64,000 bases of DNA, from NCBI GenBank assembly GCA_030264375.1, contig JASCQW010000109.1, forward strand, positions 69,601,110 to 69,665,109, in the 5' to 3' direction. This DNA comes from Carcharhinus longimanus. Its lineage: Eukaryota. Shown piece after piece: positions 6,111 through 61,102 of this stretch. Position 1 is the first letter of the stretch; every line of letters begins with the position of its first letter. Position numbers and translations under genes: made by a program. The notes under the pieces were generated by a model. The model did no database searches and had not been told where the DNA came from. It saw nothing but the letters and a program-made list of their open reading frames with translations.

Positions 6111-6341
6111 CAGTTCATTGTGAAAGCTGGGACCGCGGCTGCGTTTTAAGAGCTTTTGCGCTTTAAACCAGTGTGATGATTCGCATCAATAAGGAGATCG
6201 ACAAAGAAATAATGTCAAGATTTTAAATCGCACAAGTGTTTGGGTGAAATCTGCGACTTCGATCAGGGATCTTATATTTATTCGAATGAATTATCCAACC
6301 GAGTTGTGGCGCTGAAATCATTGGGATGCTTTGTGCTGGAA

Positions 6342-8798
6342 ATGAGATATTATCAACCACACTGGCTGTTAAAATGGTCATTGTTGCACTGTGGATTGTG
6401 CTTCTGGGATCTGATTTCTTGTCAGATTCGCTATTCGATTCCAGAAGAGCTGCAACTGGGCGCCTTTGTTGGGAATATCGCAGATGATTTGGGTTTAAAT
6501 GTGCAGGAGCTCGCGGCTCGCAGTTTCCGGATCGTTCCCGGGCCCAGGAAACAGTATTTCGACCTAAATTTGAACAATGGTATTTTATCTGTGAAGGAAT
6601 ATATAGATAGAGAACAGCTGTGTGGGTCGAGCGAAACGTGTGCTGTATCTTTGGAAACTGTGATCGAAAAGCCTTTCAGTCTCTACGATATTGAAGTGGA
6701 AATTCTCGACGTAAATGATAACGCACCGATTTTTCCAAATAAACAATTCCGCATTGAAATCTTCGAAGGGGCCTCACCGGGAACTCGCTACGCCCTTCAG
6801 CGCGCCCACGACCCAGACGTAGGAACCAACTCCCTCCAGTCGTATCAGCTGGATGCCAATCCGTACTTCACTTTAAATGTTGAGAGTCGAAATGGGAATG
6901 ACGACATGCCTGTGTTACTGCTAAAAACGCCACTTGATAGAGAAAAGATATCCAGTCACAGGTTAGTGTTGATCGCCAAAGACGGAGGGGTCCCGGAACG
7001 ATCCGGAAGTGCCGAGATAATAATCAGCGTAAAAGATGCAAATGATAACACTCCTGTCTTCTCGCAATCAGTTTACAACATCAGTCTTTTAGAAAACGCA
7101 CCCAAAGGAGCATTGGTAATAAAGTTAAATGCTACTGATTTGGATGCCGGTCCAAATGGGGAAATTCTGTACTCTTTTAGTAACCATGCTTCTGGTAGAG
7201 TCCGTGAGTTGTTCAGTCTGGATTCTAAAACTGGTGAAATCAGAATCAGGGGCAATTTAAACTATGAGATCAACAAGTTTTTCGAGATTAATGTGCAAGC
7301 AATGGACAAGGGACCTTATGCAGTCCCTGCTTATTGTCATGTGCTGCTACATATTGTGGATATCAATGATAACGCCCCAGAGGTGACTGTTTCTACGTCG
7401 TTCAGTCCAGTTAGCGAAGATTCAGTGTCCGGGACAGTTGTGGCTCTAATCAGTGCAACAGACAAAGATTCAGGAGAAAATGGGCAGGTAAAATGTAAAG
7501 TCGCAGAAAACGTTCCATTTCAACTGGATTCATCGTCCAAGAAGTACTTAACATTGCGTACAAAACAAGGACTTGATCGGGAAAATATCTCCAGATATGA
7601 AGTCACCGTTGTGTGCAGTGATTCAGGATCTCCTTCTCTCACCTCACAGAAAGTCATCCTGGTGGAGGTTTCGGATATAAATGACAATGCGCCACGCTTT
7701 TCGCGACCTTTATACACAGCTTATGTGATGGAGAACAATGTTATTGGCACGTCTATATTATCAGTGGCCGCTTTTGATCCAGATTTAAACCAGAACTCTC
7801 GACTAAACTATTCCATAATACCGGCGCAAGTACAGGATGAGTCAGTATTTAGTTACGTCCATATCAAACCAGAAAAGGGAACTATAATTTCTCAAAGGTC
7901 TTTTGACTATGAAAGACTCAAAAGTTTTCAGTTTGAAGTTCAGGTTACGGACTCTGGAGCCCCGTCACTATCCAGCACTGTCGCAGTAGAGGTGGTAATC
8001 CTTGATCAGAATGATAATGCTCCTGTCATCGTACATCCATTACCAGAATATGGATCTACAGTAACAGAGATTGTATCTCGATTTGCAGAACCAGGCTATC
8101 TAGTCGCCAAGGTGTCGGCCACAGATGTCGACTCTGGTCAAAACGCACGCCTCACGTACGAGATTCATCAGGCTACTGAACCGGGACTTTTTACCATTTC
8201 ACCAGATACAGGTGAAATTTGGACCATCCGAGGCATTATGGGCAAAGATACCACGAGGCAAAGGTTGGTTATTGCTGCAAGAGACAGTGGTTCACCGCCA
8301 CTTTCAGCCACAATGACAATCATCTTATCACTGACAGAGGGTGATACAGAAATGCTTTCCGACGTGAGCAGTCTGTCTGAGGATTCTGGTTCTGTGAGTG
8401 ACATTAGTTTTTTCTTAGTTATATCGTTAGGGATAACCTCTTCAATTTTCCTCGTCGTTTTAATTGTTCTCGCCCTTAAGCTTAAAAATAACAGGAACAT
8501 GTTTGGTGCACAAAATGGTTTTCGAAACACTTGCTGTTGCCTCAGCGGACGAAATTCCATGAATGGAGTTCAAAAAGCTAGCAGAAATCTTGAAATAGTT
8601 CCGAACTATGTTGAAATATTTGGGGGCGATCCACTTTCCCAAAGTTTTCGCTATGACTCATGTTCATCTTCGGGCACAGCCAAGAGAGACGCCATATTTT
8701 CTAACAAGTATCAGTCATCCAGTTCCAAGAATAACGTCATGAGTGGAGATGAGGAAATACTACGAAATGTCAAGTGCAAAAATACCATAAATAGTGAG
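6342..8798 (+). CDS. Clustered protocadherin variable exon V1 (signal peptide, EC1-EC6, TM, variable cytoplasmic domain); splices to constant exons outside the window
   Basis: ORF 6240-8807. Start placed at the ATG shared by paralogs (6342, MRYYQPHWLLKW). QIRYSIPEE, DRE/DYE, DxNDNAP and AxDxG motifs repeat six times; TM FFLVISLGITSSIFLVVLIVLAL; donor GAG|GTGAGC after 8798 (819 codons, phase 0). Confidence 0.95.
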
Positions 8799-9444
8799 GT
8801 GAGCTGATCTTACTGCCTTAAATATTTGCATTTGTTTTGGCGTCCAGTCACGAATTCGCTATTCCCAATGACCACTGTGTTTTAATGACTCTGGCATCTT
8901 CTGAAGTTTTGTCATTCCAGGGTCCGACATGTTCTAGTTGATGGCAGAGGAATATCAGACATGGTTTATATCCCAAATCTAAATTTGTTTTTCTATTTCA
9001 GTTCAAAGTAATGACACTTGATCAAGATTCCGTCCAGTTTTAAACTGAGAATTCTGGGTGAAATGCTGAGGATCATTCACAAGTTGAAACTTTTAAGAGA
9101 AAGTAACAGCTGAGTTAATTAGCAGGTCAGAACCGTCCGGGATTCCCTTATCGTAGATTGTCATAGCAAAGTCTTAAGTAATCAAAATGTTTTACAACTC
9201 TTAAAACGCTGCACGAGAATTACTTAAAGTATTGATGCAGTTGCTTTGAATTTGGGAAGAGGAATGTGTCATGGATGCATGCATGACATTTAGAAGAAAG
9301 GAAACATTCAGAGTACTAAAATAAGCACAGTATTGTGGATACGATTGTCAGAAAAGATGCGATGAACGCGGGGACCAGTGAAAACCGTTCAGCACCTTGA
9401 ACCTGTGCATTCCTTCAGTTAAAACATTTCAGTTGGATATCTCA

Positions 9445-9648
9445 ACTCATAGAACTCATAGCACTCAAAGAACCCTACAGTGCAGAAAGGGGCCCTTCGG
9501 CCCATCGAGTCTGCACCGAACACAATCCCACCCAGGCCCTACCCCCCATACATCATACCCACTAATCCCTCTAACCTACGCATCCCTGGACACTAAGGGG
9601 CAAGGTCTTAGCATGGCCAATCAACCTAACCCGCACATCTTTGGACTT
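9445..9648 (-). mobile_element. HE1-type SINE 3' part inside a degenerate minus-strand CR1 (~9370-10240)
   Basis: ccctacagtgcagaaagg..ttcggcccatcgagtctgcaccg..agcatggccaatcaacctaacccgcacatctttggact, shared with other copies in the window. Confidence 0.7.
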
Positions 9649-10384
9649 CAACTTGCTGCCTTGTTTCCATTGCCCTCAAGTCTTTTGTACTATGAAAACG
9701 TAGCAATTTTATCATTGGCAATTTAAATTCAGAATTCACATCAGCTTTTCAGTGAGGCATTCTTGATTCCTACTTTGTGTGAACGACTGCACACTGGCAT
9801 CACTTCAATTACCTGGATCTAGTTTGTCAGGTTGTGCCCTTTCTTCTCGATTCTCGTGCCAGAAAAAATAACTTTTCTCTAATCTTTAAAAACCATTAGC
9901 TGTCTTAAGCACTTCATTTATATCACCCCTTAATATTTTACTTACAAGTAAATGGTAAATTGATTGACACAGTCGGTATTGATAACTGTTTTAGATCGGG
10001 GAATCATACTGTTGAATCTGCAATGAGTCCACTCCAAAACCAACATATACCTCCTGAAGTGTGCTGCCATCAGCTGAATGTAATTCTCACCTGAGCTCTA
10101 TAAAGCTTGAACGCACCATCCATTATTAGAATATCAGGCCTTTTGAGATAGTGACCACTTTTCCAAAATGTTTACTGTTGTTTTTAAAGCAGTACGCTCT
10201 CTTTTAATGATGTACGTACTGGACCTTTAAATCTCTGTTCATTCATGTCCCCAAAATTAAATGGGAAATAATCGTGTTCATAAAATCATTTTGAGAACCA
10301 CCAGACGCGATAAAGTGCGTAAAAACCAATGAAGAACTGCGCACTGTCAGGTGCGTATCAACCAAATTACGCACAGCAAAATCC

Positions 10385-10655
10385 GACCAATAGTAGTGCA
10401 AGAATGACCAGATAATCTGCACATGTGATGTAAATTGAAGGATAAATATTGGTCAGGAGACCAGGCTTCCACTCAAGTAATCGAAGGTTGCTCTGGTTTA
10501 AAGTTTCATCTGAAGGACAGCACCTCTAACAATGCAGACCCTCTGAGTACTGCAATGAAGAGACAGCATTGATTTTTGGCCTTGAGCCCTGGAGAGTACC
10601 TGAAGTCAAAATCCAGTAATTGAAAGCGAATATGCCACTAACTGACTCACGGGTA
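10385..10655 (-). mobile_element. Old SINE, probably DeuSINE (SacSINE1/AmnSINE-like)
   Basis: ggtttaaagtttcatctgaaggacagcacctctaacaatgcag resembles the Deu-domain consensus as I recall it; not database-checked. Confidence 0.45.
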
Positions 10656-11939
10656 ACCTGCTATTTCCTATACTGAGCTCTATAGCCGCATCTTGCCCAC
10701 GCTTTAACCTCGCAATGTGCCTTGAAACCTATTGTTCCCGTTTGCGCTATTTATTGTGTCACAAAATCTATTTCCGTAGAGAGGGTGCGGAGAGGGGAGA
10801 AAATATGGTAGACCATCACTGAAGGAAGGATCACGCATTCTAAAACTTGTTTTGGATGAATGGTGTGTTGTCATCTGCATTCATTTCAATTTTGGTGAAT
10901 TCTTTCAGTGACTTCCTGCAGCAGAAATTTGCGTCCTCGTGTAAACCAGTTGTATTTTGGAAGAAGTATGTATGCATTAATTGAGAAAGAAACAACAAAA
11001 AAAATAGTGTTTAAATGCATATCTACCACCAGAACAGCATGGATGTGTAAGTATACTTAACGATTAATTTAGCTGTTGAGTGCAGTGTTGATTTTATGCT
11101 GCATGGTGATATAAATTGCAATAAATGGGACTCCCAAGGTTTCGCAATTCCAAATAATTTCAAGAAATTTTATTTAATTTGACCATCCTTAGTTGGTGTG
11201 TGCATTGGGAGAAGAACGCCATTAGCTTTAGATTATTTTATCATTTTTCACTGTGTGCAATGCCAACCATTAATGAAACGCAGGTCTATCACAGCACAGC
11301 TCTGCTATACAATTCTTGGTCATTTCATTGAGTAAATTAACCCCATCTTCTAAGAATTGATTTATAGCTGTAGAAGGATGTTACACACACACAGTAGCCA
11401 GGATGAGTGGCATAATCTAAGGAGTGCCACATTCGAGTCAGTATTGTGAAATAGGACAACCATTTGTAATTGTGTACCATCCGCCCAAAGGCATTCAATA
11501 TTAAGCATTTACTTGCATTTGCTAGTGGATAAATGTATTCCCAACTATCTAATCTCTTAACATAAAACGCAACGTGATAATCCATTGTAATCTTCTCCAC
11601 AATATGGCGAGCATCAGCAGCCAGTGTTCCACCTGTTCCCTGCCACTACAAACAGCAACGATGCCAAGAAGAATATCAATATTATGTCAGATGTAATCAA
11701 CAGAAAACTAACTGATATTCTTGAAAATTAATTAGGCGTGCATTGTAATAATACTTTAAGTGGGTCATGTAATGATGATACTCAGAAAATTAACTGCGAC
11801 CATTTTTGGAGAATAGCGCAGCTCAGAAATGAAGAACTCCGAACTATTTACATAAGACTCTCGCAGCCTTGATTTAAGAAAAATAGTAAAATTGGATAAA
11901 GCGAGGCAGAGCAATCTAGTCATGACATGTTATTATTTG

Positions 11940-12300: not shown

Positions 12301-12399
12301 ATCTAATTGTTTAAAGCTGATATTTTGTTGTTTTACAAAAATGAACATGAAATCTAGGCTAGAGTTCGCAATGACCCACTTTAGCTATTTCGCACTACT

Positions 12400-15510: not shown

Positions 15511-15616
15511 GCATTTTTGATTGAACAACCATAAATGTGAAATCGGCGCAATGAGTTTTCTCGTCATTCCAGCTTTAAGAATTGCTCGCAACCTGATTGG
15601 TTGGATGTGATTCTGC
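15511..15616 (+). promoter_or_regulatory. Promoter cassette of V2 (3' half lost in gap 15617-15838)
   Basis: TTTTTGATTGAACAAC, GCTTTAAG 15572, ATTGG 15596, then Ns. Confidence 0.75.
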
Positions 15617-15899
15617 NNNNNNNNNNNNNNNNNNNNNNNNNNNNNNNNNNNNNNNNNNNNNNNNNNNNNNNNNNNNNNNNNNNNNNNNNNNNNNNNNNNN
15701 NNNNNNNNNNNNNNNNNNNNNNNNNNNNNNNNNNNNNNNNNNNNNNNNNNNNNNNNNNNNNNNNNNNNNNNNNNNNNNNNNNNNNNNNNNNNNNNNNNNN
15801 NNNNNNNNNNNNNNNNNNNNNNNNNNNNNNNNNNNNNNAAAAATATTTCGGCGTGACCGAGCATTCGGGCTGAAGCAACTGGAATGATTTGTGCTGGAA

Positions 15900-18344
15900 A
15901 TGATATATTATAAAAGATTTTGGCTGTTCAGATGTTCGCTATTATACTGCATGTGGGTTTTCGATCAAATATCTGGAGAGATTCGCTATTCAATTCCCGA
16001 AGAGCTAAAACTGGGGGCCTTTGTCGGGAATATCGCAAAGGATTTGGGTTTAGACCTGAAGGAGGTCAAAGTTCGCAGCTTTCGGATTGTGCCTGGTCAC
16101 AAAAAACAATATTTCGACGTAAATCTAAACAATGGTAATTTATTTGTAAAGGAAAAGATTGACAGAGAAAATCTCTGCGGGCCGAGTGCGGCATGCCTGT
16201 TATCTTTACAGACAGTGATAGAAAACCCTTTCACTCTGCACGATGTTGAAGTGGAGATTCTGGATATAAACGATAATGCTCCGACATTTCCAAAAAATCA
16301 ATTCCGCCTTGAAATCTCCGAGGCGGCCGCGCCAGGAACCCGGTATCCACTTGATTCTGCGCACGATCCAGATATAGGAACCAACTCCCTGCAGTCATAC
16401 CAGCTACTAACAGACGAGAATTTTGCCTTGAATGTTGAGAGTCGAAATGCGAATAAAGATATGCCAGTATTAGTTTTGAAAAGGTCACTGGATAGAGAAA
16501 AAGTATCACATCACAGGTTACGCTTGATTGCCAAAGACGCAGGAATCCCAGCGCGGTCAGGAACAGCTGAGATAATAATCAGTGTACAAGATGCGAACGA
16601 CAACGCGCCTGTGTTCACCAAACCAGTTTACAACGTCAACCTTTCCGAAAATATAACCAGAGGGACATTGGTGATCAAACTAAATGCCACTGACTTGGAT
16701 GATGGTTCGAACGGAGAGATTATTTATTCTTTCGCCAGTCACACGGCGGTTAGAGTGCGGGAGTTGTTCAGCCTGGATTCTAAAACTGCAGAAATCAGAA
16801 TCAGGGGCAATTTAAACCATGAGGAGAACAAGCTTTTCGAGATTAATGTGCAAGCAATGGACAAGGGACCGAATGCAGTCCCTGCTTATTGCCTTGTGCT
16901 GGTTCACGTTGTGGATATCAATGATAACGCCCCAGAGGTGATTGTTTCTACGTCGTTCAGTCCAGTTAGCGAAGATTCAGTGTCGGGGACGGTTGTGGCT
17001 CTAATCAGTGCAACAGACAAAGATTCAGGAGAAAATGGGCAGGTGGAATGCAAAGTCGCAGGAAATGTTCCCTTTCAGCTGGATTCATCATCTAAGAAGT
17101 ATTTGACATTGCGTACAAAACAGGAACTTGATCGGGAAAATGTCTCCAGATATGAAGTCACAGTTGTGTGCAGTGATTCAGGATCTCCTCCTCTCACCTC
17201 ACAGAAAGTCATCTTGGTGGAGGTTTCGGATAAAAATGATAATGCGCCACGCTTTTTGCGACCTTTATATACAGCTTATATGATGGAGAATAACGTTATT
17301 GGCATGTCTATATTATCAGTGACAGCTTTTGATCCAGATTTAAACCAGAACTCCCGACTAAACTATTCCATACAACCGACACAGGTACAGGATGAGTCAG
17401 TATTTAGTTACGTCCACATCCAATCAGAAAATGGAACTATAATTTCTCAAAGGTCTTTTGACTATGAAAGACTCAAAAGTTTTCAGTTTGAAATTCAGGT
17501 TACGGACTCTGGAGCCCCGTCACTATCCAGCACCGTCACAGTAGAGGTGGTAATCCTTGATCAGAATGATAATGCTCCTGTCATCGTACATCCATTACCA
17601 GAATATGGATCTACAGTAACAGAGGTGGTTTCTCAATTTGCAGAACCAGGCTATCTAGTTGCCAAGGTGTCGGCCACAGATGCCGACTCTGGTCAAAACG
17701 CACGCCTCACTTACGAGATTCGTCAGGCTACTGAACCGGGACTTTTTACCATTTCACCTGATACAGGTGAAATCTGGACCATCCGAGGCATTATGAGCAA
17801 AGATGCCACAAGGCAAAGGTTGGTTATTGCTGCAAAAGACAACGGTTCACCGTCGCTTTCAGCCACAATGACAATCACCTTATCACTGACAGAGGGTGAT
17901 AAAGAAATGCTTTCTGATATGAGCAGTTTGTCTCAAGATCCAGGTTCCTTTAATCATGTCAGCCTTTACTTGGTCATATCTTTAGGGGTAACACCTTCTG
18001 TTTTCCTCGTCGTTTTAATTATCCTCGCTATTAAGGTTCATAAAAACAGGAATCGTTTTGGAGTTCATATCGGTTACCTGGACACTTGTTGTTGTTTCGA
18101 AGACCTGAATGAAATCCAAAAAGCCAGCAGAAATCTTGAACTTGGTCCGAACTACGTCGAAGTTTTGGGGGGCGAGCAACTTTCTCAAAGCTTCCGCTAT
18201 GACACTTGTTCGACTTCAGGTACAGTTAAGAAGGATACAAAGTTCCTTGACATCTACGGATCATCTGTATGCAAAACAAACGTACCGAATGGAAATGACG
18301 AACTTTTCCAGAATGTAAACATCCGGACCTCCGGAAATAATGAG
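15900..18344 (+). CDS. Clustered protocadherin variable exon V2
   Basis: ORF 15891-18359; ATG 15900; six cadherin repeats, TM and cytoplasmic motif; donor GAG|GTGAGG after 18344 (815 codons). Confidence 0.95.
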
Positions 18345-24410: not shown

Positions 24411-24640
24411 TTAACGTTGAAGGTCGGGCCCGCAGCATTGTCAGCGATTTTGCATTTGAAACTAAACGGTGATTATTCACAAAAAGATCGGCATGGAAGC
24501 GGTTTTCAGACATTTAAAATGACAAGTACTTCGGGAAGCCTGCTCCTTCCGCAAAGAAAATAATGCATCAGTAGCTTCATCCGAATGATTTATCGAACTG
24601 AGCTCTCGCACTGAAACAATTGGGATGCTTTGTGCTGGAA

Positions 24641-27091
24641 ATGAGATATTCTAAACGACACTGGCTGTTAAAATGGTCACTGTTGTACTGTGCATTCTCC
24701 TTCTGGGACCTCACTTCTTGCCAGATTCATTATTCCATTCCTGAAGGTCTGCAACTGGGCGCCTTTGTTGGGAATATCGCAAAGGATTTGGATTTAGACC
24801 TGAAGGAGCTCGGAGTTCGCAGTTTTCGGATTATGCCTGGTCCGACAAAACAATATGTCGACGTAAATTTGAACGACGGTAATTTATTTGTGAACAAAGA
24901 GATTGACCGAGAAGAGCTGTGTGGGTCGAGTGCAAAGTGTGTCTTGTCTTTAGAAACGGTGATCGAAAACCCTTTCAGTCTTTACGATGTCGAAGTGGAG
25001 ATTCTGGATGTAAATGATAACACGCCGACATTTCCACAAGCTCAGTTCCGCCTGGAAATCTCCGAAGTGGCGACACCGGGGACACGCTATCCACTTGAGT
25101 GCGCTCACGACCCGGACGTAGGAACCAACACGCTGCAATCTTATCAGCTATCTGCAAACGAATATTTCTCTTTAAATGTTGAAAGCCAAAATGGAAATGA
25201 AGACCTGCCGGTGCTAGTTTTGGAAAGACCACTGGANNNNNNNNNNNNNNNNNNTCACAGATTAGTGCTGATTGCCAAAGACGGCGGGGTCCCTGTGCGA
25301 TCCGGAACTGCAGAAATATTAATCGTTGCCCAAGATGTCAATGATAATGCTCCTGTCTTTTCCCAGACAGTTTATGAGGTCAGTCTCTTGGAAAGCACGC
25401 CCACAGGAACACTGGTGATAAAATTAAATGCCACTGATGCAGACGATGGTTCCAATGGAGAAATAGTGTACTCATTCAGTCGCCATACCTCTGCAAAAGT
25501 CCAGGATTTTTTTACTGTGGATTCCAAAACTGGTGAAATCAGAGTAGGAAGAAATTTAAATTATGAAGAAAACAGCCTTTTTGATATCAATGTACAAGCA
25601 ATGGACAAGGGATCGGGCTCAATACCATCTTATTGTCATATATTAGTTCAGATTGTGGATGTAAATGACAATGCACCGGAGGTGACGATAGCTACACTGT
25701 TCAGTCCAGTTCCTGAGAACTCTATTCCCGGAACAGTTGTAGCTCTGATCAGTGCAACAGACAAAGATTCAGGAGAAAATGGGCGGGTAGAATGTCAAGT
25801 CGCAGAAAGCTTTCCCTTTCAACTGGATACATCCTCCAAGAAGTACTTAACATTGCGTACAAAACAGGGACTTGATCGGGAAAATGTCTCCAGGTATGAA
25901 GTCACAGTTGTGTGCAGTGATTCAGGATCTCCTCCTCTCACTTCACAGAAAGTCATCCGAGTGGAGATTTCGGATATAAATGACAACGCACCACGCTTTT
26001 CGCGATCTTTATATACAGCTTATGCAATGGAGAACAATGTTATTGGAACGTCTATATTTTCAGTGACAGCTTTTGATCCAGATTTAAACCACAACTCTCT
26101 ACTAAACTACTCCATACAAGCGACCCGAGTGCAGGATGAGTCAATATTTAGTTACGTCCACATCCAGTCAGAAAAGGGAACCATATTTTCTCAAAAATCT
26201 TTTGACTACGAAAGACTGAAAAGTTTTCAGGTGCAAGTACAGGTTAGGGACTGTGGAATCCCATCGCTCTCCAGTAATGTCACTGTCGAGATAGTTATCC
26301 TTGATCAGAATGACAATGCTCCTGTCATCGTGCATCCATTGTCTGACTATGGGTCGACAGTATCAGAGACTGTATCTCGTTTCGCAGATCCAGGCTACCT
26401 GGTTGCTAAAATATCGGCCACAGATGCCGACTCTGGTCAGAATTCACGCCTCTCTTACCAGATTCTGCAAAGCACAGACCATGGACTTTTTACCATTTCA
26501 CCTGATACAGGTGAAATCTGGACAATCCGAGGCATTAGGAGCAAAGATGTTTCAAAACAAATGTTGGTAGTCGCTGCAAAAGATAACGGTTCACCACCAC
26601 TTTCCGCTACAATGACAATCATCTTATCACTGGCAGAGGGTGATCGGGAAATGATTTCTGATGCGAGCAGTTTATCTGAAGATCCTAATTCCTTTACTGA
26701 CGTTAGCCTTTACATAGTCGTAACGTTAGGGATAACGTCATCTTTCTTTCTTGTCGTTTTAATTATACTGGCCGTCAAGGTACATAGAAACAGAATCCAG
26801 TTTTCTGCTCAGAATGATTGCCTGGCCACGTGTTGTTGTTTCCTACCACGAACTTCCCTGAATGGAATTCAGAAAGCCAGCAGAAATATTGAAATAGTTC
26901 CAAACTATGTAGAAGTATTTGGGGGCGACCCGCTTTCACAAAGGTTCCGGTATGAGACCTATTCAACTTCACGCACGGCCAAGAGACAGACGACATCGTC
27001 TAACATGCAAAATTCAGGCAAGATTCCTCTCACGGATGGAAATGAAGAACTTATCCAGAATTCAAACTACAACAGCACTTTACAGTGTGAG
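24641..27091 (+). CDS. Clustered protocadherin variable exon V3
   Basis: ORF 24620-27118; ATG 24641; in-frame 18-N gap at 25237-25254 over the EC2 DRE motif; donor GAG|GTGAGG after 27091. Confidence 0.93.
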
Positions 27092-33515: not shown

Positions 33516-33721
33516 CTGGATTGCGAGCTGCAACGTTTCACCGGTAATTTTGGCCGAAATGAGACAACCTGACCAAGTAATCTCAGCGAATCTCAAAAGA
33601 CACAGAGAACCTGCCGTACAATCAGTTCCTTCACGTTAAGGAAAGATATCCACTTAATTGTTACAGCGATTTTAAACGGTGCCGACTCGCCCTGAAATCT
33701 TTGGAATGATTCAGCCTGGAA

Positions 33722-36193
33722 ATGCGATGTAAAATAATTTGGTTGCTAAAATGGCAACCATTGTTCTACATTTTGCTTTCCTGTGATCTAATTACTGGGC
33801 AGCTTCGTTACTCGATTCCTGAAGAACTGCAACTGGGCGCCTTTGTTGGGAATATCGCAGCCGATTTGGGTTTAGATATAAAGCAGCTCTCGGCTCGCAG
33901 TTTGCGGATCGTGGCCGGTGCCAGGAAACAGTATTTGGAGGTAAATTTAGACAATGGAAGTTTCTTTGTGAAGGAAAAAATAGACAGAGAACAGCTTTGC
34001 GGGCCTAGCCTCCATTGTGTGCTGTCCTTGGAGGCTGTGATTCAGAACCCCCTCAATTTGTACCATGTTGAAGTGGAGATTCTGGATGTAAATGACAATG
34101 CTCCCAGATTCCCAAAGGGCGAGCTTCACCTTGAAATTTCAGAGCTTGCTGCGCCTGGAGCCCGCTTCCCCCTCGAGTCTGCGCACGATCCAGACGTAGG
34201 AAGCAATTCCGTGCAAACCTACCAGCTCCACCCGAACGATTATTTCACCCTGGATGTCCTGACGCGCAGCGGAGTGGGGAAGATTCCAGTTCTGGTGCTG
34301 GAAAGGCCCCTGGATAGAGAAAAACACTCAGCCCACAACCTGGTGTTGATAGCCAAGGACGGAGGATCTCCTGAAAGGTCGGGCACTGCTCAAATCACCG
34401 TCCTGGTCCAGGATGCTAACGACAACGCTCCTGTCTTCCCTCAGGCGGCTTATCGGGTCAGTCTGTTAGAAAACGCACCGAAAGGAACTGCGGTAATCAA
34501 GTTAAATGCTACAGATCTGGACGCTGGCCCTAACGCAGAAATAGAATATACATTCAGCAGCCGGACAGCAGACAGAGCGTCTCAACTGTTCGGTATGAAT
34601 TCCAAAAACGGTGAAATCACCGTTCAAGGACTTTTGGACTATGAAGAGAGCAATGTATTCGCCATTAACGTGCAGGCTATTGACAAGGGTGCTTCGGCGA
34701 TCCCAGTGTATTGTGATGTTGTGGTGGATATTATTGATGTCAACGATAATGTCCCTGAAGTGACTTTGACGTCTTTGTCCAGTCCAGTTAGTGAAGATGC
34801 GCAGCCCGGCACGGTGGTTGCTCTGTTCAGCGTAGCTGATCAAGATTCGGGACAAAATGGGCAAGTAGAATGTGAAGTCACAGAGAACATTCCCTTCAAG
34901 CTTGACCTATCTTTAAAAAACTATTACAGGTTGCTCACGCAGTGGGTGCTGGACCGCGAAAATGTATCTAAGTATGACGTTACTGTCACATGCAGGGACG
35001 GGGGAAATCCTCCGCTAATTTCCAACAAAACAGTCCTCGTGGAGATTTCCGATGTAAACGACAACCCTCCACGCTTCACGCAACCTTCGTATACTGTTTA
35101 TATAATGGAGAACAATGTTATCGGGGCTTCCATTTTTCAAGTCACAGCCTTTGATCCTGATTTAAATCAGAACTCTCGATTATCCTACTCTATCCTTGAG
35201 ACACGGATTCAGGGTGTTCTGGCATCCTCTTACGTCCACATCAACTCGAACAGTGGTATAATATTTTCTCAGCGATCGTTCGATTACGAGCACCTTAAAA
35301 ACTTTCAAATCCAGGTTCAGGTTCAAGACTCTGGAGACCCAACACTCGCCAGCGCGGTTTCAGTGGACTTTGTTATCCTTGACCAGAATGACCATGCCCC
35401 AGTGATTATCCATCCATTACCCGAGTTTGGTTCAACCGTGATGGAAACAGTGTCCCGTTTCGCTGAACCTGGGTACTTAGTTGCTAAGGTATCGGGCAAC
35501 GACGCGGACACCGGTCGAAATGCTCAACTTTTTTATCAGATTCGTCAAGCTACAGATCCTGGTCTTTTTACTATTTCTACCGACACTGGGGAAATCTGGA
35601 CAACCCGTCGGATAGTCAAGAGCGATAGCAAAAAGCAAAAGTTGCTCATCTTGGTGAAGGATAATGGAACACCATCCCTGTCCGCTACGGTAACTATTGT
35701 TTTGACGGTTGTGGAGGGCGATACAGAAATGTTGTCTGATGCGAGCACCTTATCAGAGGATCCTGGGTTGACTTCAGACATAAGTCTTTATTTAGTCATA
35801 TCTTTAGGCATTCTCTCGTCGATTTTTCTAGTGGTGTTAGTTATCCTGGCTGTCAAGGTTCATAAGCGCAGACATGGTTTTGACGATCGCAGTTGTCATG
35901 TGGATATCTGCTGCTGCTTTGATGCAAGGAATTCGCTGAATGGGATTCAAAAAGCCAGTCGAAATATTCAAATACCTCCTAATTATGTTGAAGTATTTGG
36001 AGGGGATCCACTTTCACAAAGTTTCCGTTACGAGACCAGTTCAACTTTAAATTCTTCCCAAAGGGATGCCCTGTTTTCCAAACTTTGCAGCTCTTCCACG
36101 GGGAATGATTACTTCTGTAGTGAAACACCGGGGAGAGAAGAAAGCGTACTGCAAGCAAAGTCTGCAAACAATAGGAACACGATAATTGATAAG
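33722..36193 (+). CDS. Clustered protocadherin variable exon V4 (distinct sequence type)
   Basis: ORF 33722-36208; six EC repeats, TM, PPNYVEVFGGDPLSQSFRY; donor AAG|GTGAGA after 36193 (824 codons). Confidence 0.95.
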
Positions 36194-40420: not shown

Positions 40421-40633
40421 GAGCAGCGAGCAGCTAGGGAGGACCCGTGCGCGAATCCATTTACAATTCAAGAAATGAAGATTAAAAGTGATTAAGCCGA
40501 GAGAATTGCAAATCGTGCAAGTATGTTAAATAACGNNNNNNNNNNNNNNNNNNNNNNNNNNNNNNNNNNNNNNNNNNNNNNNNNNNNNCGAAAGGCGTCG
40601 GACTAAAAAATATTGGAATGCTTTATGCTGGAA

Positions 40634-43223
40634 ATGAGATATAAAATATATTGGTTGCTAAAATGTCAACTGCTATATTGCGTATTCTCCTCGTGGAATC
40701 TAGTTTCTGCGCAGATTCGTTATTCGATTCCTGAAGAATTGCAACTGGGCGCCTTTGTTGGGAATATCGCAGATGATTTGGGTTTAGATATAAAGCAGCT
40801 CTCCGCTCGTCGTTTGCAGATTGCGTCTGGGCCGGGGAAACAATATGTGGACGTACATTTGAACAATGGCATTTTATTTGTCAAGGAAAGGATTGACAGA
40901 GAACCGCTTTGTGGACCCACCCAGATTTGTGTGTTATCCTTGGATGTCATGCTTGAAAATCCCATCAATCTATACCAGGTTGATGTGGAGATTCTCGATG
41001 TTAATGACAATGCTCCCCGTTTTGCAAATAGACAATTCCGCTTGGAAATCTCAGAGCTTTCTTCACCGGGAACGCGCTTTCCCCTCGAGTCTGCGCACGA
41101 TCCGGACATTGGGACAAATTCCTTGCAAACCTATGAGCTCCTTCCGAACGGTCATTTTATTCTCGATATACAAACGCGCAGCGGAAAAGGAAAATTACCA
41201 GTATTGGTGTTGGAAAGGTCCTTGGATCGAGAAACAGAGTCAACTTACATTTTAACTCTAATAGCCAAAGATGGCGGGACCCCCATTAGGTCAGATACAG
41301 TTAATGTTACAATCATAGTAAAGGATGCAAATGACAATGCCCCTGTTTTTTCTCAGTCAGTTTATAGAGCGAGACTGTTGGAAACCGCACCCAGAGGAAC
41401 CCTGATAATCACATTAAATGCCACTGACTTGGACGATGGTCCCAATGGAGACATAGTTTACTCTTTCAGCAGTCATAGTTCCGCTAGAGTTCGAGAGCTG
41501 TTCGGTGTGGATCCCAAAACCGGTCAGATTAGAGTGAAAGGCAATTTGGACTATGAGGAAAGCAGTGACTTTGAGATTAACATACAAGCAATGGACAAGG
41601 GTCCGTACGCAATGTCCGGACATTGTGACGTTGTGGTGGATATTATTGATGTGAATGATAACGCGCCTGAGGTGACTGTGAGGACTTTGTCCAGCACAGT
41701 TTCAGAAGATGCTCCACTTGGAACAGTGGTCGCTTTGTTCAGTGCAGCAGATAAAGATTCGGGGCAAAATGGGCAGGTGCAATGTCAAATTTCAAATCAG
41801 CTGCCCTTTAAACTAGATTCTTCCATGAAGAACTATTACAGACTGCTTCTTCAGCACCGACTGGATCGGGAAGGTAGCCCCAGGTATGACGTCACTATAA
41901 CATGCACGGATGGAGGAAATCCCCCTCTGGCATCCAAAAAAACCATTCGGGTAGAGGTTTCAGATATAAATGACAATGCCCCACGGTTTACCCAGACTGT
42001 GTACACAGCAAACGTGAAGGAGAATAATGCTATTGGGGCGTCCATATTCTCCGTCTCAGCCTTTGATCCAGATGTAGGACAAAACGCTCGTCTAAAATAT
42101 ACTGTACTGGAGACTCTAGTTCAGAATTCTTCAGTTTCCACTTCCGTTTCAATTAACTCGGAGACTGGGGTCATTATCGCTCAGAAATCTTTTGACTACG
42201 AACAATTGAAAAACTTTCAGGTCCAAGTTCAGGTCATGGACTCTGGGACCCCACCACTCGCCAGTAATATCTCAGTGAATGTTATTATCCTTNNNNNNNN
42301 NNNNNNNNNNNNNNNNNNNNNNNNNNNNNNNNNNNNNNNNNNNNNNNNNNNNNNNNNNNNNNNNNNNNNNNNNNNNNNNNNNNNNNNNNNNNTCAGTGAA
42401 TGTTATTATCCTTGATCAGAATGACAATGTTCCAGTGATCGTGCACCCATTAGCCGAGTATGGCTCAACGGTAACAGAGACAATATCCAGGTTTGCAGAA
42501 CCAGGCTACTTGGCTGCTAAGGTATCGGCCACTGATGCTGACGCCGGGGAGAATGCTCGCCTTTCTTATTCCATTTTTCAGGCTACCCAGCATAACCTCT
42601 TCACCATTTCACCAGACAATGGGGAGATTTGGACTGTCCGTCGCATTGAGAATAAAGATGCCTCTAAGCAAAGGTTGGTGATTATGGTAAAAGACAATGG
42701 AACACCATCACTTTCTGCCACAGTGACCATCATCTTATCTGTGGTAGGTAGTGATGCTGAATTGTTATCTGATGTGAGCAGTTTATCAGAACGCCCTGTT
42801 TTCACACCTGATCTGAGCCTGTCCTTAGTATTAACTTTAGGAATAATTTCAGCCATTTTTCTGGTAATTATGATTATTCTCGCTGTTAAAGTCCACCGAA
42901 ACAGAAATGGTTTGGGTACGCCATGCTGTTCCCTCGGCACCTGTTGCTGCTTTGAAACAAGACATTCTCTGAATGGAATTCAAAAGGCCAGTAGAAATCT
43001 TCAGATACCACCCAACTATGTCGAAGTATTCGGAGGTGATCCACTTTCCCAGAGTTTCCGCTACGAGTCATGTTCAACGTTGCAGTCAACAAAGAGAGAC
43101 TTCCTAACGGCAAACGCATGTGGGCTTTCTACAGCCAAGTACGCGCTACAGAATGCACCTATTGAGAAAGACAAGGCAGGGTTGACGAACTCTGAAAATT
43201 ACAACAACTTCACAAGTAATGAG
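40634..43223 (+). CDS. Clustered protocadherin variable exon V5, split by an assembly gap
   Basis: ORFs 40613-42415 and 42279-43385 join across the 100-N gap (42293-42392), which is flanked by a 21-bp duplicate. Removing gap and duplicate gives 823 continuous codons. Alternative in-frame ATG at 40625; donor GAG|GTGAGG after 43223. Confidence 0.88.
42293..42392. other. Assembly gap with 21-bp overlap inside V5
   Basis: TCAGTGAATGTTATTATCCTT at 42272-42292 and again at 42393-42413. Confidence 0.9.
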
Positions 43224-46909: not shown

Positions 46910-46914
46910 CCGTC

Positions 46915-48830: not shown

Positions 48831-49030
48831 ACTTTTTGATTGTGCAACGATAATTATATTGCCGGTTTGAAGCATTGCAGCTTTAAGAAACAGAGAGCAT
48901 TCTGATTCGTTGAATTTCACATTGCCTGTGTTCACCAATCAGAAGCTGATATGTGATTGGGGATCCGGACTGCCCCCTTCATAAACCAGACACCATCACG
49001 TACGACCAGACGCAGTGTAAAATGGAATAA
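48831..49030 (+). promoter_or_regulatory. Promoter cassette of V6
   Basis: TTTTTGATTGTGCAAC, GCTTTAAG 48880, ATTCG 48905, CCAAT 48935, GATC 48962; near-identical to V5 from the CCAAT box onward. Confidence 0.8.
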
Positions 49031-49242
49031 CGAGCAGCTCGGGAGGATTTGTGCAAGAATCCATTGGCAATTTTAGGCAGAATGCGAAGATTTAAATGAA
49101 GTCAGAGAGTGATTCGCAAAGCGGACAGGTATTTTTCGCATCGCAGATCCTCGGATTTGAAAAGGAACTCCCCAAAACACTGTTGAAAGGATATGAACAG
49201 TATAGTAGCGTACTGAGAAAATTGGGATGTTTTATGCTGGAA

Positions 49243-51711
49243 ATGAGATATAAAATACATTTGCTGATAAAATGCCAGCTATTGTATTGTGTGTTCTCCT
49301 CGTGGAATCCAGTGCTTGGGCAAACTCGTTATTCGATTCCTGAAGAACTCGAACAGGGCGCCTTTGTTGGGAATATTGCAGCCGATTTGGGTTTGGATAT
49401 AAAGCAGCTCTCGGCTCGTAGTTTGCAGGTTGCGTCTGGGCCTAACAAACAATATGTGGGCGTAAAATTAGACAATGGGATTTTATTTGTGAAGGAAAAG
49501 ATTGATAGAGAACAGCTTTGCGGGCCTACACTGAACTGTGTGTTATCCTTGGATATTACGCTTGAAAACCCCCTCAGTCTGTATCAATTTGAAGTGGAAA
49601 TCCTCGATGTAAATGACAATGCTCCCAGCTTTCCAAGGAGGCAGATCCGCCTCGAAATCTTAGAGATTGCTGCGCCTGGAGCGCGTTTTCCCCTTGACTC
49701 CGCGCACGATCCGGACATTGGAAACAACTCCCTACAAACGTACCAACTTCTTCCGAACGATTATTTCACTCTCGATGTACAAATACGGAGTGGAGAAGGG
49801 AAGTTACCGGTACTGGTGTTGCAGAGGCCCTTGGATAGGGAAACTATATCAACCCACAGTTTAACGCTGATAGCTAAGGATGGCGGGATCCCTGTAAGAT
49901 CAGGCACTGCTCAGGTCATAATCACAGTAAAAGATGTAAACGACAACGCGCCTATTTTCTCCCAGTCGGTTTACAAAGCCAGTGTGTTGGAAAATGCTCC
50001 AGTTGGTAGCCGAATAGTCACAGTAAATGCCACTGATTTAGACGATGGTTCAAATGGAGAGATAATGTACTCGTTCAGCAGTCACACATCTGCAATAGCC
50101 CGTGAATTATTTAGAGTGGATTCGAAAACTGGTGAAATCACAGTGAAAGGTAATTTGGACTATGAACAAAGAAATGTTTATGAGATTAACATACAAGCAT
50201 TAGACCTGGGTCCTTATGCAATGCCGGAGCACTGTGACGTTTTGGTTAATATTATTGATGTGAATGATAATGCACCCGAGGTGACGCTGAGGACTTTGTC
50301 TAGCACAGTTTCAGAAGACGCTCCAGTTGGAACTGTAGTCGCTCTGTTCAGTGCAGCAGATAAAGATTCGGGGCGAAATGGGCAGGTAAATTGCGAAATT
50401 TCAAAAAAACTCCCCCTCATATTAGATTCTTCATTGAAGGGCTATTACAGACTACTTATTCAGCATCGACTGGATCGGGAAAATACCTCCAAGTATGACG
50501 TTACTATCACATGCACAGATGCAGGAAATCCTCCTCTCACAACCAGGAAAACCATTCGAGTGGATGTTTCAGATGTAAATGACAATAGGCCTCAGTTCAC
50601 GCAGCGTTTCTACACAGCAAACGTTGTGGAGAATAATATTATCGGGAGTTCTGTATTGTCCGTCATAGCCGTTGACCCAGATATAGGATTAAACGCTCGA
50701 CTAAACTATTCTCTGCTGGAAACTCAAGTTCAGAACTCTTCGGTGGCCACTTACGTTTCTATTAACTCGGAGAGTGGTGTCATATATTCTCAGAGATCTT
50801 TTGACTATGAGCGATTAAAAAACTTTCAAGTTCAAGTTCAGGTCATGGACTCTGGAATTCCACCACTCGCCAGTAATGTCACAGTGAATGTTATTATCCT
50901 TGATCAGAATGATAATGTTCCAGTCATCGTGCACCCATTAGCCGACTATGGCTCAACAGTAACAGAGACAATATCCAGGTTTGCAGAACCAGGCTACTTG
51001 GTTGCTAAGGTATCGGCCATTGATGCTGACGCCGGGCAGAACGCTCGCCTTTCTTATTCCATTTTTCAGGCTACCCAGCATAACCTCTTTACTATTTCAC
51101 CAGACAATGGCGAGATTTGGACTATCCGTCGTATTGAGAATAAAGATGCCTCTCAGCAAAGGTTGGTGATTATGGTAAAAGACAATGGAACACCTTCTCT
51201 TTCTGCCACAGTGACCATCATCTTATCTGTGATTGGGAGTGATATGGAAACGTTTCCTGATGTGAGCAGCTTATCGGATGATCCTGGTCTCACAGCTGAT
51301 TTGAGTCATGCCCTAGTCATAGCCTTAGGTACAATTTCCATCATTTTCCTCATGATTTTAATTATCCTCGCCATTAAAGTTCACAACGGCAGAAATCCTT
51401 TAGGAAGTCAGCCCTGTTCTCTGGCTGTTTGCTGCTGCTTTGAAACAAGACATTCTCTGAATGGAATCCAAAAGGCCAGTAGAAATCTTCAGATACCACC
51501 CAACTATGTTGAGGTATTCGGGGGTGATCCACTTTCTCAGAGTTTCCGCTATGAGTCATGTTCAACATTGCAGTCAACAAAGAGAGATTTCATCACATCA
51601 AACACATGCAAATCATCTACAGGCAAGAATTATAACTGGAATAAACCAAACACGGATGAAAATCCAGAGCTGAAGAATTCAGAATATTATCCTAACTCTG
51701 TGAACAATGAG
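49243..51711 (+). CDS. Clustered protocadherin variable exon V6
   Basis: ORF 49096-51726; shared start at 49243 (in-frame ATG also at 49234); donor GAG|GTGAGA after 51711 (823 codons). Confidence 0.95.
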
Positions 51712-56229: not shown

Positions 56230-57000
56230 TAATTCAGCTTCACTCATCAAGACAGACGCATGAATGCCAAATTTGAAAGAGAACAATTTTGTTGCATGAT
56301 TACTCGGTACTAATTAGTTGGCAAGCATATTTGGTTATTATGGAGAAGGCAACAGGGAAAATGAATCCCACAAGCCTCGAAATATATCGCCATTCCTTTG
56401 CACTTCTTGGGTCCAAATTCTGGAATGTACTACCTAACGGAACTGTGGGTTAACCCACAGCACGTGGACTGCAGCGTTTTAAGAAGGCAGTTCACCACCA
56501 CCTCCTTTAGGGCAACTGGAATTGGCAATAAAATCTAGCCAGCCAGCGATGCCCAAATTCCACAAATGAATACAAAGTGTTGTTTAAATCCAGTTTGGGC
56601 AGATAACTCAGATTGTTTGGAGCATTGCCGTGGGATATACATCATGGTAAATGAACAATCTCAAATATGAAAAGAATTACAGTAACGAACACTTGAATGT
56701 TAACAATCAAGCTCGTCATTTAGTTCACTTAAACTTGCCACAAGCTACCTGTATTCATGGATAGGGGCACGTCCTATGCAAACAGAAATAAAATGCACAG
56801 ACATTGCTGTTTTTTAAATTAAACATAATAATGAGAATAGCCTCCCTGTGCGTTCTCCATGGCAGAGTGTCAACCAATCAGAATGCAACCAAACAACAGT
56901 TTTCATATGCAGTATTAACTGTTGTTACCTTTGACATTTTGTACATTTGGATCTATCCTGAAGAGGGAACAAAACTTCGACAGCATATCTCATTTTCAGT
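56230..57000. mobile_element. Inverted pair of Penelope-like terminal repeats with an internal LINE tail (56387-56575)
   Basis: 56230-56360 (-) and 56830-57000 (+) both resemble 790-880 (tcatgc..attgtt..CTGnnGA). Confidence 0.5.
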
Positions 57001-57059
57001 ACACTCAAGAATTGTTAAATCAAAACCTAAGTAGCTTATGGTGAACATGTATAAAATGC

Positions 57060-57500
57060 CAGCTGAACCTTAGCTAAAATACTGTGTCTAATTCTGAACA
57101 GCACACTTCATGAAGGATGCGAAAGATTTGGGGCAAATGAAGAATAGAATATGAGAACGTTTCCAGAGATCAAAAACTTCTCTTATGTGGATATCGTAGC
57201 AATACTTGTGGTGCTTTCAATAAAGCAGAGAAGATTGAGAAGAGATTTGATGGAAGCATAGACAACAGAAGCAAATGCCTTTCTGTGCAACCAATTGGTC
57301 GGATCTACAATGTGCTTCCAAAGGTTGTGAGGAAGGCAGATTTAATCATAGCTTTCAGAGTGAATTGGATAATTATCTGAAGATAAAAATATTGTGGCTT
57401 GATATAAAACTGCTAGGAAGTCGGACAAGATGGTTAGTTCTTGCAGAGAGCCAATATGCACACAATGGATGGAATGGCCTCCTTGTACGTTTTAACAATG
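57060..57500 (+). mobile_element. Degenerate CR1 3' end
   Basis: gcagagaagattgagaagagatttgatggaag..gaattggataattatctgaag..gaatggcctccttgt. Confidence 0.65.
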
Positions 57501-58245
57501 TTTTCATCTCAATTATATCAGGAAACATACCAATTAAATTATGTACTTTGTTTAGATTTTAAGTGGACGTTTGTTGATAGGCCACAAGTGATGGGCTATG
57601 GGGTTTCCAGCTTATACGATAAATAGATTGTAAATTGGCTTCGTACCAGCAGGCAGGTGTATTAGATTACTATCTCCAAGTGTATTTTCCAGCATCGTTT
57701 TTGGCTTCCTACAGCTCACAGATATTGTAATTCAAATAGATTATTCGTGTTAATACATTTTTCAGTGACAAAGAACTATGTGGTAGTTACAGGTGAAAAA
57801 AGTAAAATTACTTTTAGAGTGACATATGCTCATTTCAAACAATGTGTTAAGGCATAAAATGTTCTCGTGGGTTAAATATATGTATAGTGAATTACTTTTT
57901 GTGAGAGTACGGGCTGCAAGAAAATGCACCCACTGCCAAGGCTGAGAAAACAAATAAAAATAACTATAGAAACGAACATATGTTATGCCCTGAAATACTC
58001 CAATCATTTTGAAAGTGTTAGTAATGAGGCAAAGGCCAAGGGCCTGGAAGGCAGTGAATTTAAATTCATGGTCATTAATAGTGACAATGGAATTGAATGT
58101 TTGGACATAATGAGTTCCGCAGATTCCTTTCCATCTTATGTCTTTATTTATTTTCAGGACATTCGCCACATGTGATCTTACATTATTCATTCATTCAGTA
58201 GAAAATGTTTACGCATAACAAATAATGGTGAAAATAGCTTAATAA

Positions 58246-58450
58246 AATTTTAATTGTGCAACAAAAATTGTAGGTCTGCAACGCTACTTTCAGTCCTTGC
58301 TTTAAGAAACGAGTAACATTGCAATTGGTTGAATTTCTTTGTGGCTCTGTTCACCAATCAGAAGCGGAGATGTGAATGGGGATCCGGACGGCCCCCTTTA
58401 CTACCCAGCCACCATCACGCACGATCAGAGGCAGTGTAAAATTGGATAGC
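58246..58450 (+). promoter_or_regulatory. Promoter cassette of V7
   Basis: TTTTAATTGTGCAAC, GCTTTAAG 58299, ATTGG 58324, CCAAT 58354, GATC 58381. Confidence 0.8.
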
Positions 58451-58636
58451 GAGCAGCTCGGTCGCGTTTGGGAGAAATGAACAGGTCTGACTGAAAAAAG
58501 AATCGAGCGATTCGCAAAGCGACAAGGTACTGAGTACATCTAGCTCATTGGTTTTATTTTACAAACGATGCAACATTTAAAAGGATCATGATTGGTGCGT
58601 GCGAGCACTGAAACAATTGGAATGTGTTGACTAGAA

Positions 58637-61102
58637 ATGAGATATCAAATATATTGCTTCCTAAAATGCCAGCTATTGTACTGTATATTCCCGTGGAGTT
58701 TTGCTTTTGGGCAAATTCATTATTCGATTCCCGAAGAGCTGCAACTCGGCGCCTTTATCGGAAATATCGCAGCCGATTTGGGTTTAGATATAAAGGAGCT
58801 CTCGGGCCGCAGTGCACGGATTGCTCCCGGGTCCGGGGAGCAGTATGTGGACATCAGTTTAAACAATGGAGTTCTGTTTGTGAAGGAAAAGATTGACAGA
58901 GAAAACCTCTGCGGGCCGAGCCTCACGTGTGTGTTGTCCTTGGATATTATGTTTGAAAACCCCCTAAGTCTGCACCAGATTGAAGTGGAGATTCTCGATG
59001 TTAATGACAACGCTCCCAGTTTTCCAAAGAACCAGATCCGCCTCGAAATTTCAGAGACTGCATTGCCCGGAGCGCGTTTTCCTCTCGACCCTGCGCACGA
59101 TCCGGATATTGGCAACAACTCCCTGCAAATGTACCAGCTCCTCCCAAACGATTACTTTATTGTCGACGTACAAATGCATAGCGAGGAAAGAAAATTACCG
59201 GTGCTGGTGTTGCAGAAGCCATTGGATCGAGAAACGATATCAACCCACAGATTAACTCTAATGGCCAAGGACGGCGGGATCCCTATAAGGTCAGGCACTG
59301 CTCAGGTTCAAATCATTGTGAAAGATGCAAACGACAACTCACCTGTTTTCTCCCAGCCGGTGTATCGAGCCAGCCTCTTGGAAACTGCACAAATAGGAAC
59401 TCTAATAATCAGGTTAAATGCTACTGATTTGGACTATGGTTTAAATGGAGAGATAATGTACTCGCTTAGTAGCCACAGTTCAGCTGGAGTTCGTGAACTC
59501 GTTGATGTAGATTCCAAAACTGGCGAAATCAGAGTGAAAGGGAAACTGGACTATGAGGAAAAAAAGGCTTTTGAGATTAACATTCAAGCAATCGACAAAG
59601 GTCCTCACCCAGTGCCCGAGCACTGTGTTCTATTAGTGAATATAATTGATGTGAATGATAATGCACCTGAGGTTACACTGAGGACCTTGTCCAGCACAGT
59701 TTCAGAAGATGCTCCAGTTGGAACCGTAGTCGCTCTGTTCAGTGCTGCAGATAAAGACTCGGGGCCAAATGGACAGGTACAATGTCAAATTTCAAATAAA
59801 TTGCCCTTTAAACTAGATTCATCTTCGAAGAGCCATTATAGTTTGTTCATTCAGCGCCAGCTCGATCGCGAAGATACTCCAAAATATGATGTTACTATAA
59901 TCTGCACTGATTCAGGAAGTCCTCCTCTGATATCCAAGAACAATATTCGGATATACGTTTCAGATGCAAATGACAATCCGCCAAGATTCACTAGACACTT
60001 ATACACAGCAAATGTGATGGAGAATAATGCTGTTGGTATCTCCATATTCTCCATGACAGCCTATGATCAGGATATAGGTGAGAACGCTAAACTAAGCTAC
60101 TGTATCCTGGAAACTCACGTTGAGAATGCATCAGTGTCCAATTATGTCTCAATTGACTCGGGGACTGGGGCCATAATCGCTCAAAAATCTTTTGACTATG
60201 AGAACTTGAAAAGCTTTCAGTTCCAAGCTCAGGTCATGGACTCTGGAACCCCATCACTCGCCAGTAATGTCTCAGTGAATGTTATTATCCTTGATCAGAA
60301 TGACAATGCTCCAGTAATCGTGCACCCATTAGCCGAATATGGTTCAACGGTAACAGAGACAATATCCAGGTTTGCAGAACCAGGCTACTTGGTTGCTAAG
60401 GTATCGGCTACTGATGCTGACGCTGGGCAGAATGCTCACCTTTCTTATTCCATTTTCCAGGCTACCCAGCATAACCTTTTTACTATTTCACCAGACACTG
60501 GAGAACTTTGGATTATCCGTCGTCTTGAGAATAAAGATGCCTCTAAGCAAAGGTTGGTGATTGTGGTAAAAGACAATGGAACTCCATCACTTTCTACCAC
60601 AGTGACCATCATTTTAACTGTGGTAGGTGGCGACACTGAATCGTTCTCTAGCGTCAGTGGATCATCTGTAGATCCACGGTTCACTCCTGATCTGAGCCTT
60701 TCCCTGGTAATATCCTTGGGGATAATTTCTACCGTTTTTCTCGTTATTTTGATCATTCTTGCCACTAAAGTTCATAAAAGCAGAAATGCTTTGGGAGGTC
60801 AGCACTGTTCATTGGGTGTTTGTTGTTGCTTTGAAGCAAGACATTCTCTGAATGGAATTCAAAAGGCCAGTCGAAATCTTCAGATTCCACCCAACTACGT
60901 TGAGGTATTCGGGGGTGATCCACTTTCTCAGAGTTTCCGCTACGAATCATGTTCAACATTGCAGTCAACAAAGAGAGACTTCATCGCTGCTAACACCGTT
61001 AGGTCATCTACGGAGAAGAACTATCTCCAGAATGAGTCTATGAGGAAAGAATACCAGGGGATAATAAATTCTAAAAATCACAACGATCCTTTAAACACTG
61101 AG
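58637..61102 (+). CDS. Clustered protocadherin variable exon V7
   Basis: ORF 58637-61111; six EC repeats, TM, cytoplasmic motif; donor GAG|GTGAGT after 61102 (822 codons). Confidence 0.95.

Follow-up and report, generated by a model that had tools for sequence, protein, structure and literature searches.

The 64-kb window considered here, by which we mean the whole stretch of Carcharhinus longimanus DNA that was analysed, lies at C109:69.60-69.67 Mb of a 2.68-Gb genome, inside an array of protocadherin exons that spans approximately 68.8 to 69.75 Mb of the same contig. The window contains seven protocadherin variable exons on the forward strand, V1 to V7, each preceded by an additional ATG triplet shortly upstream of the main start codon (uATG), and the subject of this analysis is this uATG and the short upstream open reading frame (uORF) that it opens. 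The coding parts of the exons, from the main ATG to the splice donor, are located at 6342..8798 (V1), 15900..18344 (V2), 24641..27091 (V3), 33722..36193 (V4), 40634..43035 (V5, which has an internal assembly gap and whose end was taken from the donor motif), 49243..51711 (V6), and 58637..61102 (V7). The V4 protein has 85% identity to a Carcharodon protein, 82% to a Scyliorhinus protein, and 65-66% to Callorhinchus nu8, nu13, nu15 and nu17, and nu-type constant exons are located downstream of the variable exons at C109:69.76-69.82 Mb. Because of this similarity and these constant exons, V1-V7 are assigned as the first seven variable exons of the nu subcluster of the shark clustered protocadherins (cPcdh).

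Together with the downstream exons L001-L012, V1-V7 form a nu set of 19 placed exons, which are not independent of each other because L001-L006 are recent duplicates. A further copy, L013, is unplaced and was excluded from all counts; it has the uATG as well. For comparison, 47 non-nu exons were fetched, of which 42 had a callable start and five were dropped because no motif or no Met was found; the non-nu starts were chosen automatically, and some are possibly misplaced. Immediately upstream of V1, at about 3200-3700 of the window, lies a decayed protocadherin exon that carries stops and frameshifts. In L011 (C109:69745842 onward), a frame break in EC1 beside an assembly gap reflects either a pseudogene or an assembly error, and its uATG and stop are intact. 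C-type orthology of the nu exons is not claimed: gamma-C4 is the top match of EC1-4 length for V6 (446 bits; next alpha-4, 400), and it is also the top match of the non-nu exon L043 (432 bits; next gamma-B7, 424).

The uATG was originally predicted from the window alone. All seven uATGs were confirmed at their coordinates, with a spacing of 16 nucleotides (nt) to the main ATG in V1-V6 and 15 nt in V7, as were the uORF peptides and their lengths of 53, 9, 9, 8, 8, 8 and 2 codons for V1-V7 and the G at position −3 of the uATG, which is invariant. The V1 uORF (6326..6487) has lost the early stop, as main codon 5 is CAA, and ends at the predicted stop at 6487. The overlapping uORFs of the next five exons encode MICAGNDIL (V2, 15884..15913), MLCAGNEIF (V3, 24625..24654), MIQPGNAM (V4, 33706..33732), MLYAGNEI (V5, 40618..40644), and MFYAGNEI (V6, 49227..49253). 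In V7, where a 1-nt deletion gives the spacing of 15, the uORF is reduced to the non-overlapping two-codon frame ATG TGT TGA (58622..58630). Across the 19 nu exons, the uATG is located at −16 in 17 and at −15 in V7, and it is lost only in L007, where it is replaced by the near-cognate ACG. The sequence definition of an overlapping uORF (oORF), namely an upstream AUG in another frame than the main start, with a stop inside the main coding sequence, applies to 17 of the 19. An ATG at −13 to −19 was found in none of the 42 scorable non-nu exons; the feature is specific to nu, and its description as cluster-wide in the original prediction was wrong.

The retention of the uATG was compared with a neutral simulation on the paralog tree. 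With a rate below the observed synonymous one, at least 18 of the 19 uATGs were kept in 0.2% of 3000 runs (P=0.002), and with matched rates in 0 of 3000 runs. The retention is not due to chance, and the start codon is under purifying selection. The uATG belongs to a conserved block that extends from −33 to +18 relative to the main ATG and consists of G..CTGAA, GRRATG, GCTGG, the main ATG, and frozen third positions in codons 2-6; its copies are at 6309..6359 (V1), 15867-15917, 24608-24658, 33689-33739, 40601-40651, 49210-49260, and 58604-58654. By parsimony, no change has occurred among the 19 nu exons at −33, −30, −27, −19, −16, −14, −6 and −3, and 4-7 changes have occurred at −32, −31, −25, −24, −13, −9 and −8. 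It is most improbable that shared ancestry or gene conversion homogenised these leaders, even though L001-L006 are recent duplicates and the four-fold sites of EC1 are somewhat slower (2.5 vs 3.5-4.8 changes, 8 sites). Conversion would level all sites, yet the interleaved positions −32, −31, −24, −13, −9 and −8 carry 4-7 changes, and conversion is thus contradicted. The signal-peptide codons 7-27 also vary normally, with 3.9 changes at third positions, and the simulation was already built on the tree, which speaks against shared ancestry. Furthermore, limited gene conversion is described for elephant shark in PMC2764143.

The block also contains a main-frame CTG at −30 (6312, 24611 and 49213 of the window, and equivalent positions), whose −3 base is an invariant G and whose −2 and −1 bases are free, as with both ATGs; in V2 and V4, this CTG would open a five-codon frame that ends on the ATGA of the uATG. 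If the block encoded an in-frame N-terminal extension starting from this CTG (LKQL[GE]CFVLE-M), the ATG would be a by-product of Glu/Gly-Cys codons. The invariant G at −33 is then the −3 position of the CTG, and the peptide recurs in annotated shark, ray and chimaera proteins. We nevertheless regard the extension as very unlikely, as its frame is closed in five of the 19 exons (TGA in V2 and V4, TAA in L010, indels in V5 and V7), the CTG itself is altered in L009 and L012, the main frame shows no periodicity (2.2 changes at third vs 1.9 at first and second positions), and no change has occurred at −19 and −16, which would be wobble bases. A search of the region for further N-terminally extended proteins returned the query alone.

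The stop codon and the frame pattern under the overlap speak in favour of a translated uORF. The uORF stops fall 11-14 nt into the main coding sequence, and 16 of the 19 nu exons, compared with two of the 42 non-nu exons, have a stop no farther than +14 in this frame; in L010 it is kept as TGA in place of TAA. The stop has been lost in V1, V7 and L007, the last two of which are the two exons without the −16 ATG, and this association has a Fisher p of 0.018 and a branch-length estimate of 0.019, both post hoc and based on three events. The third positions of main codons 2, 3, 4 and 6 are unchanged throughout, compared with an average of 4.1 changes in the background, where 6 of 300 columns have zero; codon 3 exists in 9 of the 19 nu rows only. 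The second positions of main codons 2-4, which are the wobble positions of the uORF, show 2-3 changes, and the combination of a frozen third and a variable second position occurs in none of the 92 background columns. Main codon 7 (Tyr), which lies beyond the uORF stop, varies freely (6/3/4 changes by position). When V7 and L007 are excluded, the changes from uORF codon 4 to the stop are 2/4/11 by codon position. V7, after its frameshift, has substitutions at −7 and −4, which are otherwise nearly fixed.

Upstream of the leaders, the nu promoters have several blocks in common: GCTTTAAG, two CCAAT boxes, TGGnGATC..CCCCCT, and CAGTGT at approximately −230. In V6, where they span 48880..49020, GCTTTAAG is at 48880, CCAAT at 48935, TGGnGATC at 48958, and CAGTGT, the putative start region, at 49013. 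The claim that the rest of the 5' untranslated region is much less conserved than the leader block is correct for about −200 to −35, and fails for these promoter blocks at about −430 to −225, which are conserved like the leader block. The sequence CGCT stands directly before CCAAT in 35 of the 42 non-nu promoters compared with one of the 18 scorable nu promoters, V6 being among those without the box. The conserved sequence element (CSE) that contains this CGCT box (GTGTCGCTGTCTACCAAT) is degenerate in nu, for example at 48900-48940 of the window, compared with exons L014-L060, which suggests that the nu genes may not use promoter choice by CTCF. The Pcdh CSE, a CTCF site (PMC7811963, PMC4978886), is likewise a conserved element upstream of each cPcdh variable exon. 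The CSE is located 210-330 nt upstream in the non-nu subclusters of this genome and is lacking in the nu promoters, and the nu block has no match to it: the candidate reading of the block as a CSE/CTCF site was rejected, as a matrix built from 35 non-nu promoters scores the block at −3 to −18 compared with 5-37 for true sites. Absence of the CSE and presence of the −16 uATG thus coincide in nu, which as one lineage does not allow a correlation to be asserted.

Contigs from one sequencing run of a relative (X1), whose RNA status is a guess and probable, bridge the uATGs of V6 and V7. The V6 contig covers 49024-49508 and starts at −219, 11 nt past the C of CAGTGT. The V7 contig covers 58484-59019 and starts at −153; its sole gap is at 58572, which indicates that the relative has the 15-nt spacing too and that no assembly error is involved. 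The depth of X1 is zero in unique intergenic bins. At 61104, one contig departs from the genome with 24 letters of unlisted sequence. The V7 donor is at 61102 and constant exon 1 starts with GTC; this break is where spliced RNA would diverge and fits a transcribed uATG. The leader of V4 is not covered by X1, which makes the run uninformative for this exon. Close relatives are of little further use: in a second one (X3), none of the 32 differences listed, out of 33 for the V4 contig, falls within 33621-33728.

The depth of the feature was assessed with 19 annotated nu starts of other chondrichthyans, whose gene models extend the main frame through the leader; this sample favours open frames, contains repeated entries of one gene, and does not separate A from G at −16. 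In thirteen of the 19, a Cys at −5, where the TG is kept, follows E, G, K or Q. The residues at −6/−5 are D-A or N-A in two rows from Callorhinchus, which would fit an ATG or ACG at −17, again out of frame. A pattern scan for DNA of distant chondrichthyans had 0 matches.

The best single reading, to which we give about an even chance, is that a selected overlapping uORF may act as a translational brake on the nu protocadherins. The kept stop, the frozen synonymous sites of the main frame, and the bridging contigs support the part of the original prediction that proposed such a brake, with its extent reduced from the whole cluster to nu. According to PMC10275272, out-of-frame overlapping uORFs typically repress, and the main frame is reached by leaky scanning. 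If transcription starts near −230, at CAGTGT, scanning ribosomes would meet the uAUG first; those that initiate there would terminate past the main AUG and produce no protocadherin, and the output would then depend on leaky scanning. Both AUGs have a middling context, with G at −3 and mostly no G at +4. In yeast reporters (PMC9743702), competition between two AUGs extends over about 17 nt, and the inhibition by a uAUG weakens nearer to the main AUG. As the contexts are similar and the 16-nt spacing is just inside this range, a partial brake is predicted. More speculatively, the exons have a third, downstream out-of-frame ATG at +30/+33, in the frame of the uATG (6374, 15932, 24673, 33751, 40663, 49272..49274 and 58666), which could capture, in that dead frame, ribosomes that have passed over the main start. 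It is present in 18 of the 19 nu exons and absent in L007. This ATG arises from K/R-W/C codons; AAA encodes the Lys 17 times, and AAG, which makes up 46% elsewhere, does not occur. A further speculative step, which follows work on AUG-proximal stops, is that the early stop may limit junk peptide or decay of the mRNA.

A number of observations weigh against the uORF as the sole or limiting cause, the first group of which concerns the block itself. When the uATG was compared with its flanks, it was the least-changed triplet within −60 to −1 (one change), and the flanking triplets CTG(−6), TGG(−5) and CTG(−30) were nearly as invariant, with 2, 2 and 3 changes; the uATG is not clearly more invariant than its surroundings. 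Moreover, the frozen positions include G(−33), CTGAA (−30 to −26) and the third base of codon 6, all of which lie outside the uORF and its context, and some constraint other than the uORF therefore acts on the block. This leads to the main rival, that the −33 to +18 block is a composite protein-binding element of DNA or RNA in which the ATG is incidental. We consider it possible, at clearly less than even chances; one form of it could be a transcription-factor site in the first exon that takes over in promoters without the CGCT/CTCF element. Such an element would account for the several sub-blocks, equally invariant and at constant distances from each other, that lie partly outside the uORF, and the nu promoters, without the CGCT box, hold further blocks of like character. 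The CSE matrix scores given above argue against it, as does the TATA-like run at +7, which is broken in V3, V4 and L010, all of which retain the stop, and the variable bases under the overlap fall mostly on third positions of the uORF. A TEAD-like site, one of the two alternatives raised originally, is weakened, as is the other, gene conversion: GGAATG, which we take to be the TEAD/MCAT core, is intact in 12 of the 19 exons compared with 18 for the ATG, and the ATG survives in six of the seven where it is broken.

The second group concerns the reading frames. The combined uORF codons 2-5 show no periodicity (11/7/11), and V1 retains the uATG yet has lost the early stop. The third positions of main codons 2-6 are 95% A/T, and selection for an A/U-rich unstructured start with the Kozak context of the main ATG, in which the uATG is a tolerated passenger, could partly explain the frozen sites. 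No consensus fold was obtained, in agreement with such a start; a structured cis-regulatory RNA was likewise rejected, with 0 covarying pairs in an analysis that covered 16 of the 19 leaders. As a complete account, the unstructured start appears improbable: the A/T fraction at the same positions is only 0.51 in the non-nu subclusters, and it leaves unexplained the invariant G at −19 and −14, the A rather than T at +6 and +18, and the fact that −16 never becomes G. Taken jointly, all readings other than the uORF brake and the binding element are unlikely.

The third group concerns other starts and the depth of evidence. The 17 gap-free leaders hold 58 other uATGs (3.4 each) against 73.9 expected, a ratio of 0.78; because these are only mildly depleted, ribosomes would meet several uAUGs earlier, and the −16 uATG need not be rate-limiting. 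V5 and V6 have an additional in-frame ATG at −9 (40625 and 49234) in a weak context with T at −3. The X1 contigs cannot show the transcription start or the strand, and their differences at the uATG itself are unlisted. Among the cross-species rows, Callorhinchus starts of the nu14/15 type keep the Cys together with a Gln at codon 5 and so probably have a uATG without the stop, and the remaining four of the 19, from Hemitrygon, can be assigned to neither class. Two further in-frame ATGs were observed, one at −147 in V6 (49096), which has T at −3 and whose open frame would add 49 codons, and one at −54 in L012.

As a translational brake, the nu uORF would belong to the oORF class, in which overlapping uORFs are common (about 14% of uAUGs; PMC7889888) and which includes those of vertebrate SSAT and spermine synthase (PMC7889888; PMC2811004; PMC10275272). 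The out-of-frame uAUG, the stop inside the main frame, the access to the main frame by leaky scanning, and the conserved start codon are shared. Unlike SSAT and spermine synthase, nu has one very short uORF, 16 nt away, at a fixed spacing across about 19 tandem paralogs, and it has no known effector. The inhibitory uORFs of Hox genes and eIF5 (PMC8892498) are similar in that conserved uAUGs occur in paralogs of a vertebrate cluster, and the output could follow start-codon stringency; those uAUGs are described there as suboptimal in context and reporter-tested, whereas that of nu, known from sequence, combines G at −3 with an overlap of the main start. A superficial likeness, which we treat as a lead, exists between the A-G-[ND]-x-I before the stop of the nu uORF and the stalling MAGDIS uORF of AdoMetDC (PMC2811004), both peptides being very short; MAGDIS is cap-proximal and non-overlapping, unlike the nu uORF.

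The control of clustered protocadherins is described as promoter choice that involves CTCF, methylation and antisense RNA. If the brake exists, a subcluster-wide uORF would add translational dose control to this regulation, with a natural series of 19 members that includes two natural losses (V7 and L007). The mechanism itself is not new, as overlapping uORFs are common; this familiar control would here occur in a family of neuronal identity genes. No account of a protocadherin uATG or uORF was found in the literature searched, which included few subscription papers, and Yu et al. 2008, on the elephant shark cluster, may describe nu promoters or leaders. A more far-reaching scenario, which we regard as quite doubtful, is that nu dropped stochastic promoter choice by CTCF and the CGCT box and co-expresses many isoforms, whose dose would be held down by a peptide-dependent overlapping uORF (M-x-x-A-G-N-[EG]-I-stop) that predates the divergence of sharks and chimaeras. 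The control of the protocadherin identity code would then have a translational layer in a CTCF-free, co-expressed nu subcluster.

Two other candidate explanations of the block were rejected. For a splice acceptor, inspection by eye found no common AG or pyrimidine tract in the block, and for a displaced ancestral start, the main ATG already lies 27-31 codons ahead of the mature start, which is the usual distance. Outside nu, L022-L024 have an overlapping uATG at −25, which may be a displaced ancestral start. L045-L051 have a position-conserved uATG of their own at −70 (one at −49), with a uORF of 6-9 codons and A at −3, and L015-L018 and L056-L059 have a GGTAATGA uATG at about −87 whose frame varies. 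A sequence similar to a splice donor, AG|GTA(T/A)T, is repeatedly seen in several subclusters, 63-124 nt ahead of the start (in L054 at −14), its members being V6 (49129 of the window, −114), L001-L006, L011, L012, L045-L051, L015-L018, L056-L059 and L054; the X1 contig of V6 passes the site at 49129 unspliced.

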